Assembly (NCBI GenBank): GCA_004022145.1
Contig: RCNU01000010.1
Strand: one strand, 5' to 3'
DNA length: 64,000 bases
Source: Paecilomyces variotii
Taxonomy: Eukaryota
A program made the position numbers and the translations under genes. Positions 1 through 55,908 of the stretch are shown here, in pieces. Position 1 is the first letter of the stretch. Each line of letters opens with the position of its first letter. The notes under the pieces are model-generated. The model made no database searches. It was not told where the DNA came from and worked only from the letters and a program-made list of their open reading frames with translations.

Positions 1-163
1 TCGCCAAGGATGGCAAGGGTTACTTCGAGGACCGAAGACCTGCCAGTAACGCTGATCCTTACCAGATTACCGGTATTATTGTTGAGACTGTGAGTTTGCC
101 CTCGAATCGACTTTCCTAGAGCCGTGATCGCTGACTTCTCTTCAGCTGTGTGGTGGTGTCTAA
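1..163 (+). CDS. glnA: Glutamine synthetase, 3' end (partial; intron 90-145)
   Basis: Manual translation gives [41 protein letters not shown]-x-SN-x-DPY is the GS type II C-terminal motif. The intron is GTGAGT...CAG with a CTGAC branch site. Confidence 0.95.
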
Positions 164-198
164 ATTTGTGGAACCTTCTGGCTTAGCTCTTGTATACC

Positions 199-338
199 CT
201 CCGGCGTCAACCGGGAGTCGAATAGAGCGGCACGGCAGCGGGTGAAAAAGATGTTATAGTCCTTTTTCTTTTGTTGACGATAGCCTTATTAGTTATGGGT
301 TTGTTGACCCGCTCGCCGCAGCCGGTTCTATCACTCTC
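199..338 (+). promoter_or_regulatory. Structured RNA element in glutamine synthetase 3'UTR
   Basis: Nested complementary segments: 213-218/333-338, 222-228/325-331, 229-231/321-323, 233-236/315-318, 237-243/307-313 and inner hairpin 244-250/262-268. AATAAA lies downstream at ~442. Confidence 0.65.
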
Positions 339-45887: not shown

Positions 45888-46649
45888 GTTGGGCGCGCAG
45901 TGATAGGCGTTAAAGGAGTATCGAAGCGGGGTCAGAATGGAGGAATGTGGCCCCTGGCGATGAGACACGAACGAGGACCAGCGTGATATTATATTATATC
46001 TCTGTCAAAGACCGGGATTCATGGCTTTCAAAAGCTGGACTCGTAAAAATAGAACGAAAGCACTGGGAAGATGGTAACTGGACCGGGGATAGGGCTCGTC
46101 CGGCAGCGGGCCGATCTCATCGCTGATCAGCAATCACAAAGAGACACAGGAACAATAGATCAAGCGCTGCAGCGGCCACGATCCACCTGCAGCACTGCTC
46201 AGTCTGTGTAGTGTGAGTCGAGGGATGATAAGCGATAGTAGATATCTATCTTTGAGGGGGGGCCAGGGTGATGAACGGGAGAGATGCAGCTTTAAGGGCG
46301 AGGTCGGGCGGAGGTCTAGGCGAACAACGAGCTCAGCAATGACCCAACCGGACAAAACAACGGGGTGATTAGTGCGCTAGATATAGCTGGCCATGAAGTG
46401 TCCTTTTGCGTACTGCTACAGTTGCTGTTCCCATTCCTGCAGCAGAAGTCCTTGACGCGAGCTGGCCTCTACAGACGGGGTAGAGCCAGCTGAGCCTACT
46501 CTGCCATCTCTCTCTTGGCGTACTTAGATACATGCTGGCTTGTCGCTGCTCAACCACGGGCAGAACCGGTCGGAATGGGGCGCCAGATGTGGGGGATCTG
46601 GATCTCTTGTCGCTACGGCGGTGGAGAGAGCCTCTGTTGCGCAGTTCTG

Positions 46650-46680
46650 GCGCTGAAGCAGCGCTGAAGCAGCGCTGAAG
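46650..46680. repeat. 11-bp tandem repeat (GCGCTGAAGCA) x~3
   Basis: Read directly. It lies in the divergent intergenic region between the Smr gene and TVP38. Confidence 0.9.
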
Positions 46681-47366
46681 GGTCGCTGTTGATAAAGCGA
46701 CTATCTAGTCTAGTAGAAACAATATCAGCAGGGGCAGGATGAGGAGATCGATCCTCCAGACCAGCACGGCGAGGATGAGAATTCCCTGGGGACTGTTAGT
46801 CTATCTATGGCGGGTTTACCATAGATACCTAGGTACCTGTGGATTTCCCCAGATGTAAAATATAGTTACAGTACCATACAGACGGATTACACCAAATACA
46901 CCCCTTGCGAGGCAGCAACATTTCGTAACGTGACCAGACCCTGACAGCCCTGTTGGTCGGGCGCTGTCGTTGCAGTTGCACCAGTGTCTGAGATGTTCGT
47001 GCATCAGACTCTCAACGTCGATCATCTATCCCAATACTCCCTTCTTACTAGATTCAATCTTCCTCATTTGAATAACATTCCCATCTGGTTCTGCACCTGC
47101 TTGGCCCCCATCAGCATTGCCTGTACTAAACACGTTAGTTGGATGCGCTGGGCTACCTAGGTTTCAGCTTACTGAGCCTCCCACAGCCACATCCTCATGT
47201 TCTGCCCATCCCCGGGGGCACCAGATAGCCCTCATCGTTAGACTTGATTTCAGAAATCTGCAAAAAGCTCGAATTTCCTTCCACTGGTTACATTTCAATA
47301 GCTTTCCCCCTCTTCACCAAGCCATCCATTCATCCTATCTCCGGACAACCTCCGGAGCGATTCGAC

Positions 47367-50380: not shown

Positions 50381-53300
50381 ATGGAAGCCTCTTCTACTCT
50401 CAAGACCCAGGGTCTTCAGGATCTGCCCGGTAGATCAGTGCCCTTGGCTGAATTCTTACCCAATAACCAAAGTGACATCAATGAAGCAGCTCCAGCTCCC
50501 TCCCACCATGCTCCGGTTCCTGATACAATTTTCGAGATGCCGCCTGCAAAGCGGCGTCGGAGGTCCGGACAGGGCGATTCCTTTAACGGCGCCGACGGTC
50601 TCTCAACTGATATTGGAAGTCCCTTTTCATATCCTCAGAGAGTAAACATCAAAGAAGAGATGGAAGGAGCGTCACAAAGCACAGGTCGTGCATCCCGCAG
50701 TACGGAACAGGACACGAGTCATCACACGCCAAGTGACTCGATGACATCGGCATCGATGTTTTCGCCCCATCCGCAGAACAAGTCGGCATCTCCTTTGACC
50801 TTTGTCCAGACCTCTTTTGAATCTGTTTCCTCAGTGAAGCGCACAGCGTCAAAATTGGACTTTGAGAAATACCGACCTCGGTCGTCCATACCCACAGGGC
50901 TTCCTGCTCCTGTCTATGCTCAACAATGTGTCGCTGCAGCATATGCATCAAGGTTAAATCCGTATGCTTTACATAAGAATGAGCAGGCATACTTGCAGGA
51001 TCAACTATGCCATATCCATGTTACGACTTATCTCAACATTCGAAATGGGATACTTCGTCTCTGGACTCGCAATCCAATGGTGAGCGTCACGAAAGAAGAA
51101 GCCCTTGGTTGCGCGAAGGATTACCGCTGGATGAATTTGGCCGCTTTCGCCTACGACTGGCTTGTGCGAAACGGGTACATCAACTTTGGCTGCGTAGAGA
51201 TCCCCAAAGCTCTAGTTCCGCCCAAACGAGGGCGCCGAAGAGAAGGACCAGTCATTGTTGTTGTTGGCGCTGGAATGTCAGGTCTCGGCTGCGCGAGACA
51301 GCTGGAAGGTCTTTTCAGTCAGTACAGGGATAGCTCTACCTCTCCCCGCGTGGTGGTGCTCGAGGGAAGACGAAGAATCGGAGGTCGTGTTTATTCTCAT
51401 CCTCTAAAGAGCCTCCAGAGTACCCTTCCGCAAGGTTTAAGATCTACAGCGGAAATGGGCGCGCAGATCGTTGTTGGCTTCGACCACGGCAACCCGATAG
51501 ACCCGATCCTTCGCGCGCAGTTGGCCTTGCGCTACCATCTCCTCCGCGATATATCGACCATATACGATATAGACGGGAGTCCGGTAGACGAAGTCAGGGA
51601 TGCGATGGATGAGAGGCTGTATAACGACATCCTCGACCGCTCTGGGCTGTATCGGCACAAGGCTGTCGTCCAGCCGACCGCTGAAGGTGATAGGGAGGCG
51701 ATCGATACTGGTCGGGACGTGTCTGCCGACGATGGAGTGACGGTAAAGCAGTACGAAGAAGCCAGAGCCGCAGGTACTATTGATTTATTGGTGCCTTCAA
51801 AACGCGTCCGACGCGGCGTTGGCCACAAAACTGCAGACATCAAGCCTGCTGGGCCACCTATGGCAGATTTGGGACCAACGGAAGAACAGCCAGCAGCATT
51901 CACGTGTCAGACCATGGGGTGGAAGTTAAGGGATGGTGTTTCGCAGAGAGACTCAATTAACCTAGATGCTATTGCCAAAGCGAGCAACCACCAGACGTTA
52001 GGAGAAGTCATGGATGAAGGAGTCAGGCAATACCAGCGCATGCTTCCGCTGACTCCAAAGGATATGAGACTACTCAATTGGCATTTTGCAAATCTTGAAT
52101 ACGCGAATGCTTGCAATGTTGGGAATCTCAGTCTTTCTGGGTGGGATCAGGATATTGGAAATGAATTCGAGGGAGAGCATGCGCAAGTGATTGGGGGATA
52201 TCAGCAAGTCCCGCAGGGAATATGGTCTTTTCCCAACAAACTCGATGTTCGCAGAAACAAAATAGTCACAAAGATATCCTACAGCCCTTCTGGAACTTCC
52301 AACCATAAGGCATTAGTGCACTGCGAGGATGGAGAGACCTTTGCAGCAGACAAAGTGGTCTTTACGGGTTCACTAGGTGTGCTGAAACACCAGACTGTGC
52401 AATTCGATCCCTCACTTCCTGATTGGAAGAAGGGTGCTATCGAACGTCTCGGTTTTGGTGTCATGAATAAGGTGATACTCGTGTTTGAGAAGCCATTCTG
52501 GGACCTCAGTAGAGACATGTTCGGGCTTCTCCGCGAACCCACCAACACTGACAGCATGGTTCAAGCGGACTACTCAGCCAACAGGGGTAGATCCTATCTC
52601 TTCTGGAACTGCATGAAGACGAGTGGTCTTCCAATGCTTGTTGCGCTGATGGCAGGTGATGCAGCATACCATGTTGAAAGGACCCCGGATTGTGAGATAA
52701 TTGCAGAGGTGACCTCACAGCTTCGAAATATTTTCAAGACCGTTAACGTCCCTGATCCTCTGGAGACAATCGTCACACGATGGGGAACAGACCGGTTCAC
52801 AAGAGGCAGTTATTCCTCTGTTGCTCCAGAGTCTTTGCCTGGTGACTACGATCTCATGGCGAAATCGGTCGGTAATCTATATTTCGCGGGTGAAGCAACC
52901 TGTGGCACTCATCCCGCGACTGTCCACGGTGCGTATATTTCTGGGCTCCGCGCTGCGTCCGAGATCATCGAGTCTATCATTGGACCTATTGAGGTGCCTA
53001 CTCCTCTGGTCCCTGAAAAGGGCAGACAGTCAGAAACAGGCACGCCTGTGCTAGCAGGGCAGAAAAGGAAGGAGTCAGCAGCACCCTCTACAACTGCTAT
53101 CCCAGCTACCACACATGCAGCACCTGCGGTATCTTCCATCCAAGCCCGGAGCAACAACTCCTTCCCATCAGAAGCAGCGCTCCGCCAGGCTTATGATGAG
53201 GCAATGTGGGTAGCCATCTACGGCGAGCTCGGCCACCCAGAACCTCGTCCCGCCAAAATGAGCCTGAATCCTTTCCTTCTGTATCAGAAAGACTACTGGC

Positions 53301-54596: not shown

Positions 54597-55908
54597 CTAC
54601 AGCAGCGGGTTCTGACGGTACTCGGGCACAGTGCCTTCGGCTCCCTTCTTAGACTCCCCAGTGGGCTCCTGGGCGGCCGGCTCGATCTTGGAGTTTCCGG
54701 CAGCTGTGCCGGCAGCGGGGGTTTCTCCCACATCCTCGACTTCCGCAAGGAACTTCTCAGCTTCCAGGGCGGCAATGCAGCCAGATCCTATGGCGTATTA
54801 GTATCTTGCCTGATTCTGTGATATGAAAAGGAAATTTCATCGGGTTTATGCTTACCTGCACTGGTGATGGCCTGTCGGTATCGCTTGTCCTGGACGTCTC
54901 CAGCAGCAAAGACACCCTCAACACTGGTGTAGCTAGTTCCGGGCTTAGTGAGAATGTAGCCGTCCTCATCAAGCTGGACCTGGCCCTTGACCAGGGCAGT
55001 GGCGGGGTCGTGACCGACGGCATAGAACAGGCCGTTGGCCTCAACGACCTCCTCCTTGCCGGTAGTGACATCCTTGATCTTCAGGTGGGTCATCAGACCA
55101 CGGGGCTTGTTCTCACCCTGGACCTCGGTTGCGACAGTGTTGAAGCGGACAGTGACCTTGGGGTTCGACAGCAGGCGCTTGGCCATGGCCTTGCTAGCAC
55201 GTAGCTTGTCCTTGCGGACGAGGACGGTAACGTGGCTACCGTACTTGGTCAGGAACATGGCCTCCTCGGCCGCAGAGTCACCACCACCGATCACGTAGAG
55301 GGGCTTGTTGCGGAAGATGGGCACGGCTCCGTCACAGACAGCGCAAGCACTGATTCCGTTCTGCCAGTAGGTCTCCTCTCCGGGCAGGTTGAGACGGCGG
55401 GCATTGGCACCAGTGGCGATGATGACAGCATCCGCAGTGCGCGCAGGGGCATCCTCAGGGCCATCAGACCACTCCGTCCACAGCTTGAAAGGTCGCTGCG
55501 ACAGGTCGATTCTGGAGATGGTCTCGGTGATGATCTCGGTTCCGAAGCGGGCCGATTGCTTGCGCATGTTGTCCATCAGCTCGGAGCCGCCAATGCCGCT
55601 GGGAAAACCGGGGAAGTTCTCAATGTCGGTGGTGGTGGTGAGCTGGCCACCGGCAGCAGTACCGTTTGCCAGCATACCCTCGTACATGACCGGCTTGAGC
55701 TCTGCTCGGGATAGATAGATGGCAGCCGTGTGGGCCGCGGGGCCGGAGCCGATGACTGCATAGAGGAAAACAGCACGTCAGTATATAGAACCACAATGTA
55801 AGTCATATTCCAATGGCTGTAAATCCATTTTCCCAGTAAAGGCGAAGCAAGGGGAGAAGTCTCACGACCTCAAGGGGACGACGTACTGACTACCTTGGAG
55901 TGCGCCAT
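54597..55908 (-). CDS. TRR1: Thioredoxin reductase (low-Mr type), AUG-initiated form; 2 introns
   Basis: [52 protein letters not shown] and the C-terminus YRQNPLL*. Confidence 0.96.

Follow-up and report, generated by a model that had tools for sequence, protein, structure and literature searches.

Bacterial glutamine riboswitches, which comprise the glnA RNA and Downstream-peptide motifs, are structured RNAs associated with genes of nitrogen and glutamine metabolism and proposed to contain a pseudoknot. A sequence-only reading of the window (here, the whole 64-kb stretch of DNA that was analysed) had proposed an RNA of this kind, with a long stem, a multiloop and a possible pseudoknot, at positions 199-338, shortly behind the stop codon of a glutamine synthetase (GS) gene. 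The element resembles the bacterial RNAs in these respects, but it lies in the 3'UTR of a eukaryotic mRNA, has no match in Rfam and has a fold that is not kept in orthologues, and in place of a compact junction its main stem forms a long, near-perfect inverted repeat.

Three other described systems come close to this locus. In Aspergillus nidulans, the 3'UTR of areA holds a conserved region of 218 nt that is bound by RrmA and confers glutamine-signalled decay (PMC4282371). The locus described here has in common with areA that a nitrogen-metabolism gene of a filamentous ascomycete carries a highly conserved non-coding block in its 3'UTR; the areA region measures 218 nt as against about 60 nt for the GS block, and the likeness is one of description. 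Neither glnA nor glutamine synthetase is mentioned in the main text of that article. A functional RNA element in a glutamine synthetase 3'UTR is described from enterobacteria, where GlnZ is a small RNA derived from the 3'UTR of glnA (bioRxiv 10.1101/2022.04.01.486790); this bacterial sRNA is released from the mRNA by processing, and the GS element, which is known from its fold and from contigs, is likened to it by description. In the Pezizomycotina, the rps0 motif (Li and Breaker 2017) consists of 3'UTR hairpins of housekeeping genes (PMC5640933). Fungal motifs of the rps0 type are defined by cross-species conservation and covariation, whereas the GS stem is not found in the two orthologues that can be aligned. 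In two genome-wide surveys of fungal structured RNAs, PMC8216456 (with Aspergillus fumigatus among its species) and PMC5640933, the main texts name neither glutamine synthetase nor GLN1 nor glnA, and a literature search for a fungal GS 3'UTR element found no description of the block.

Gene structure and the mature GS mRNA

All features given below lie on the plus strand unless stated otherwise. The window opens inside the penultimate coding exon of a type II (eukaryotic-type) glutamine synthetase gene (3-89, cut by the window start, identified by translation), which is followed by a GT..AG intron of 56 nt (90-145), missing from an RNA contig (run X17, record 23) that runs from 89 straight to 146, and by the last coding exon (146-162), which by sequence and splice joint encodes LCGGV and ends in the stop codon TAA (160-162). 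The 29 residues encoded by 3-89 are identical to the corresponding stretch of an open reading frame at the metagenome locus L107, and the final 125 residues of that frame match solved eukaryotic-type glutamine synthetases (3fky_A, E = 1.4e-51, chain residues 232-355 of 370); therefore the gene is a glutamine synthetase, as had been read from the letters alone. Pfam gave no match for the 29-aa GS fragment or for the 125-aa fragment of L107. The window sequence occurs in food-fermentation metagenomes and metatranscriptomes, and its protein and introns mark it as that of a filamentous ascomycete.

The GS C-terminus reads ..GIIVETLCGGL* at L107, with no intron, and ..LCGAS* at a second metagenome locus, L097. 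The window carries an intron after ..IVETV, and reading frames suggest one at the fungal loci L016, L031, L042, L054 and L112; L107 and L097 have none. The stop-proximal intron at 90-145 thus appears to have been gained or lost among fungi, and the two intronless loci are, among the matches listed, the ones with the closest UTRs.

The 3'UTR of the GS mRNA is about 305 nt long (163-467). The X17 metatranscriptome contig (record 23) consists of 5-89 joined to 146-307, without 90-145, and so leads from coding sequence over the splice joint into the element, and another contig of X17 ends with 13 A directly behind 467, with an AATAAA polyadenylation signal (442-447) 20 nt upstream of this polyA site. 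Because the spliced contig reaches 307, the 13-A end follows 467 and AATAAA stands at 442-447, the whole element is inside the 3'UTR of a spliced, polyadenylated GS mRNA, between its stop codon and its polyA site. The sequence-only reading had named a polyA site upstream of about 338 as an argument against itself, and none was found. The expression evidence consists of contigs from one study (run X17). Run X15, although labelled as RNA, was rejected as evidence of transcription, one of its contigs (2998 nt) holding the intron unspliced. A 13-A end is also found on a further X17 contig, behind 602, and may mark a minor, more distal polyA site.

Predicted fold of positions 199-338

By direct sequence check, all 14 segments from which the fold had been built were found where they had been placed: CTCCGG (starting at 199), CGTCAAC (205), CCGGGAG (211), GGGAGT (213), ATAGAGC (222), CGGC (233), AGCGGGT (237), GAAAAAG (244), CTTTTTC (262), GTTGACG (273), ACCCGCT (307), GCCG (315), GTTCTAT (325) and ACTCTC (333). 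The MFE of the RNA 199-338 was -52.3 kcal/mol, compared with a mean of -38.56 (sd 3.47) for 200 dinucleotide shuffles (z = -3.96), and none of the 200 folded as well; the fold is better than its shuffled controls, as the proposal needed it to be.

In the MFE structure, the main stem (215-243/307-336) is interrupted and has 26 bp, only one of them G-U, in six helices (215-218/333-336, 220-221/331-332, 223-228/325-330, 229-231/321-323, 233-236/315-318 and 237-243/307-313), close to the roughly 27 bp of nested pairing that had been claimed. The claimed multiloop with a GAAAAAG/CTTTTTC hairpin was likewise recovered, as an apical hairpin (244-268) of 7 bp plus 2 (pairs 244-252/259-268), and the multiloop has a second, weak hairpin (278-306) with 11 pairs, 5 of them G-U (278-289/295-306). 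The 5' arm of the long stem (213-243) lies with positions 213-232 in a conserved block, described below, and with 233-243 outside it, and the 3' arm (307-338) cannot be aligned to L107 or L097; the arms of this inverted repeat, 213-243 and 307-338, are 63 nt apart. The small 5' hairpin (199-217, MFE pairs 201-204/211-214, loop CGTCAA) lies inside the conserved block and starts 37 nt after the TAA at 160-162, and the long stem starts about 51-53 nt after it. A competition between the small hairpin and the base of the long stem had been proposed, and both predicted folds do use bases 213-217. The long stem also forms in a 301-nt context (160-460), the full-UTR ensemble (163-467) gives its core pairs probabilities of 0.88-1.0, and pair 203-212 of the small hairpin has a probability of 0.68 in the UTR context.

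The reverse strand of 199-338 folds equally well (-49.2 kcal/mol, z = -4.46). With both strands folding equally well and the main stem nearly pure Watson-Crick (one G-U in 26), the element is an imperfect inverted repeat at the DNA level, and nothing in a comparison of the strands suggests that the RNA was selected. Over the whole 301-nt context, z was only -0.99, and 13 of 100 shuffles were as good. We further scanned the 64 kb in 140-nt pieces (step 20, both strands, 6388 folds, energy regressed on G+C), and 19 of the 6388 pieces, at 13 other distinct places, lay at least as far below their GC-expected energy as the element (-2.71 sd), so that comparable folds occur at about one place per 5 kb. 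The fold is thus genuine and beats its shuffled controls, yet it is less unusual than its z-score suggests, because the reverse strand equals it, 13 other places match it and the z of the longer context is so low. Places folding as far or further below the GC expectation included 53061-53260, 54921-55060 and 46581-46740, with 10 others. When the best 140-nt fold downstream of GS was taken at 14 fungal loci among the matches listed, it ranged from -0.59 to -2.18 sd relative to the GC-expected energy, compared with -2.82 in the window.

Conservation in orthologous 3'UTRs

Metagenome contigs were scanned with a pattern back-translated from an 11-residue GS peptide, which gave at least 118 loci, at least 14 of them with fungal-type GS C-termini; among the matches listed, two (L107 and L097) had orthologous UTRs that could be aligned with that of the window. 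By local alignment, the three GS 3'UTRs have in common a sequence-conserved block (170-232), the core of which (194-212, ATACCCTCCGGCGTCAACC) is a 19-mer identical in L107. For window positions 163-232, the alignment score was 64 with L107 (shuffle null 15.4 +/- 1.8) and 28 with L097 (15.4 +/- 1.9), and third codon positions differed from the window at 7 of 20 in L107 and 6 of 20 in L097. The block lies 30-45 nt past the stop in the window, L107 and L097, and it thus shows what is expected of a conserved 3'UTR sequence motif, namely conservation beyond the neutral background at the same position. As the fold shared by the three blocks is negligible (RNAalifold consensus of only -2.38 kcal/mol, 8 pairs), the block is conserved as sequence and not as structure, well beyond the synonymous background.

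Conservation ends inside the 5' arm, at about 232. No alignment to the orthologues was obtained for 233-338 (score 24, null 16.8 +/- 2.4 with a maximum of 27) or for 300-470 (score 21, null 18.4 +/- 2.2). In the window, the best duplex of the 5' arm with the downstream UTR has -41.3 kcal/mol (z = -4.9), the best of 200 shuffles reaching -34.7; a downstream partner for the homologous 5' arm was sought in L107 (-27.2 kcal/mol, z = +0.5) and L097 (-11.0 kcal/mol, z = +2.1), and none was found. The sequence-only reading had looked to orthologous UTRs for a conserved structure, and in this it was disappointed: L107 and L097 lack both the interior and the 3' arm and keep only 170-232, as sequence. 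An nhmmer profile of the block matched, among the 14 fungal loci (matches listed), only its own training rows L107 and L097; more distant fungi seem either to lack the block or to carry it in too diverged a form.

Several other readings of the block and of its matches were tried and rejected. Scanning genome and viral contigs with the 19-mer (3 positions open) returned 79 and 11 loci, respectively, which were set aside as chance matches because none of the 90 carries the EDRRPAS or RRPASN peptide in any frame, and a back-translated NADPYQITG pattern gave 0 and 0 matches in the genome and viral contig collections. The block as coding sequence was rejected, the YPPAST frame differing between the window and L107 relative to the GS stop and 1-nt indels occurring inside the block. 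A Zn-cluster-type DNA site (CCG-N8-CGG) in the block was rejected as well, its left CCG being absent in L097.

Variation among close relatives

Four runs with near-identical relatives (X10, X12, X15 and X17, at least 80% likeness) were compared, and only two differences were listed over 146-459, G273T and A330T. G273T occurs in X15, X17 and X12 and removes the pair C211-G273 of the proposed pseudoknot; A330T, listed for X15, X17 and X10, leaves a T-T mismatch in place of the stem pair T223-A330, since no difference is listed at 223. Because A330T costs only 0.5 kcal/mol in the predicted fold, these variants weigh little against the structure: uncompensated as they are, they give weak evidence against it and none for it.

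In X12, the intron has 9 differences in 56 nt as against 2 listed in the 305 nt of the UTR (Fisher p = 1e-6; p = 1e-4 in the worst case, with all 5 unlisted differences assigned to the UTR), and the 293 nt downstream of the UTR have 14 listed differences plus indels. To judge from these counts, the UTR is constrained in the clade of close relatives. The element is not the best preserved part of it: leaving aside position 460, close to the polyA site, both of the variants listed for the UTR fall within the element. Since the whole UTR is far less variable than the intron, the hairpin region does not evolve freely and could be functional in this clade. Just past the polyA site, at 482-483, relatives carry a 15-nt insertion in two versions, one in X12 and one in X15 and X17.

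The proposed pseudoknot

A pseudoknot between 205-211 and 273-279 had been proposed, and one part of the proposal stands, GTTGACG (273-279) being the exact complement of the 7-nt loop 205-211. The other part does not, as no GTTGACG-like partner was found in L107 or L097, although the loop is conserved there, and G273T occurs in three of the four relatives. The chance that the complement of that particular 7-mer occurs in a shuffled 218-338 is 0.006, for a pair that was picked after the fact, and at least one 7-nt complementary pair is present in 26% of shuffled 140-mers. The pseudoknot is, on these sequences, not supported. The string TTGTTGAC occurs twice, at 271-278 and 301-308, 30 nt apart, and the loop GTCAAC (206-211) therefore has two possible 6-nt partners.

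The region between GS and the next gene

Further downstream, 662-728 and 882-948 were matched by extra contigs in the genome-scale runs X12, X10 and X15, some of them at higher depth, and inverted repeats (755-774/880-899 and 780-797/869-886) flank the area. The minus strand of 841-980 was among the best-folding pieces of the 64-kb scan. One X15 contig has 751-895 replaced by 1666 other letters, which represents an intergenic structural variant among the relatives. The intergenic region between GS and the next gene may hold a small dispersed repeat or a MITE (miniature inverted-repeat transposable element). The next plus-strand ORFs (1026-2677; 161 aa and 396 aa) are probably one gene, with an intron or a frameshift at about 1487-1511, and Pfam gave no match for either at E 0.01.

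Origin of the element and alternative explanations

The element is probably an inverted repeat restricted to this clade that was added to an older 3'UTR block conserved in sequence, and of the two the block is the better candidate for a regulatory site. The block (170-232, about 60 nt) is the older part, with the 5' arm of the long stem as its tail. Since the interior and the 3' arm are not shared by L107 and L097, the long stem is probably a recent addition, and because its arms are nearly pure Watson-Crick complements (26 bp, one G-U), the 3' arm could have arisen most simply as an inverted copy of the 5' arm, e.g. in a template-switch event. The actual cis-acting site would be the older, linear block, to which most likely a protein binds that sets the fate of the GS mRNA, and the young hairpin would be neutral, or else passive in that it buries the 3' half of the block (213-232) and adds stable structure to the UTR. 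Both the origin by inverted duplication and the protein-binding role of the block are what we infer from this arrangement.

The same fold might instead be a functional structural switch specific to this clade, one that exposes the conserved block to a protein or hides it and so tunes the stability or translation of the GS mRNA with nitrogen status. Such a switch would fit the competition of the long stem and the small 5' hairpin for 213-217, the burial of 213-232 of the block in the long stem, the low number of UTR differences among close relatives as compared with the intron and the presence of the element in an mRNA seen in food metatranscriptome contigs; we nevertheless hold it to be unlikely, as the stem shows no covariation, the single variant seen in it (A330T, in three of the four runs) breaking T223-A330 with no difference given for 223, as it is absent in L107 and L097, as both UTR variants listed for 163-459 fall inside the element, which is thus not the best-conserved part of the UTR, and as folds just as good occur at 13 other places in the 64 kb. 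Those 13 places, at least as far below the GC expectation, together with the z of only -0.99 in the 301-nt context, would also be expected if the arms were complementary by chance, with neither a common origin nor a function. That account is a still less likely one: not one of the 200 shuffles reached the MFE, and the duplex of the arm with the downstream UTR (z = -4.9) was stronger, at -41.3 kcal/mol, than the best of 200 shuffles at -34.7. A relic of a MITE inserted in the UTR would have inverted arms like the present ones (about 31 nt, around a 63-nt interior) and would fold equally well on both strands. We hold this origin to be very improbable, as the window contains no second copy of the element and a region matching 199-338 (80% likeness) was present in only one contig each of X12, X10 and X15, where 662-728 and 882-948 drew more, with the proviso that contigs cannot prove absence. 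The many copies expected of a MITE or other small transposon, with terminal inverted repeats and target-site duplication, were thus not seen within the 64 kb and the contigs of these three runs, and the insertion of a complete element would not explain a 5' arm that lies in a block conserved in orthologues without the 3' arm.

A riboswitch that senses glutamine or another metabolite in the GS 3'UTR, as the sequence-only reading had envisaged, is of all these explanations the one we find hardest to credit. It would draw on a stable multi-helix fold beside a gene of glutamine metabolism and on a single 7-nt complement between a loop and the multiloop (P = 0.006 for that specific 7-mer), but 26% of the shuffled 140-mers have at least one such pair, G273T removes a pair of the pseudoknot in three of the four runs, and the multiloop, the 3' arm and the pseudoknot partner are not kept in L107 or L097. 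No Rfam family was matched in the search that had been called for: when 1-1200 was searched with cmscan at E up to 10, the sole rows were ctRNA_p42d (16.2 bits, E = 3.2) and an lncRNA fragment, both at chance level, and the whole 64-kb window gave 0 matches at the gathering score, with the glutamine and TPP riboswitch models included. By covariance model the element thus belongs neither to the glutamine nor to the TPP riboswitches, and an aptamer fold conserved with compensatory pairs, by which riboswitches in general may be known, was not found in the two alignable orthologues and four close relatives. That glutamine synthetase does not appear in the main texts of the fungal structured-RNA screens (PMC8216456, PMC5640933) also counts against it, within the compass of those texts. 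We conclude that the element is not an aptamer. The riboswitch-like fold, its multiloop and its pseudoknot found no comparative support in L107, L097, Rfam or the variants; of the wider claim of a cis-regulatory RNA, a role for the UTR is plausible, given the conserved block and the few UTR differences, and the riboswitch-like structure is what falls away.

Implications

A glutamine-sensing RNA in a eukaryote, if true, would be a major find, and the present candidate lacks the comparative signature of one. A young, strong hairpin on top of an older UTR motif is the kind of feature that makes fold scans of single genomes over-call riboswitches. A bolder possibility, which goes beyond our preferred reading of a recent inverted repeat on an older block and which we regard as doubtful, more so than the switch or chance complementarity, is that the block (core ATACCCTCCGGCGTCAACC) is an undescribed site of post-transcriptional control of the GS mRNA in Eurotiales-like moulds, and that the new complementary arm turns it into a masking switch that responds to nitrogen status. 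The block itself, conserved in three moulds and placed just past the GS stop, is a testable candidate for the post-transcriptional control of a central enzyme of nitrogen metabolism.
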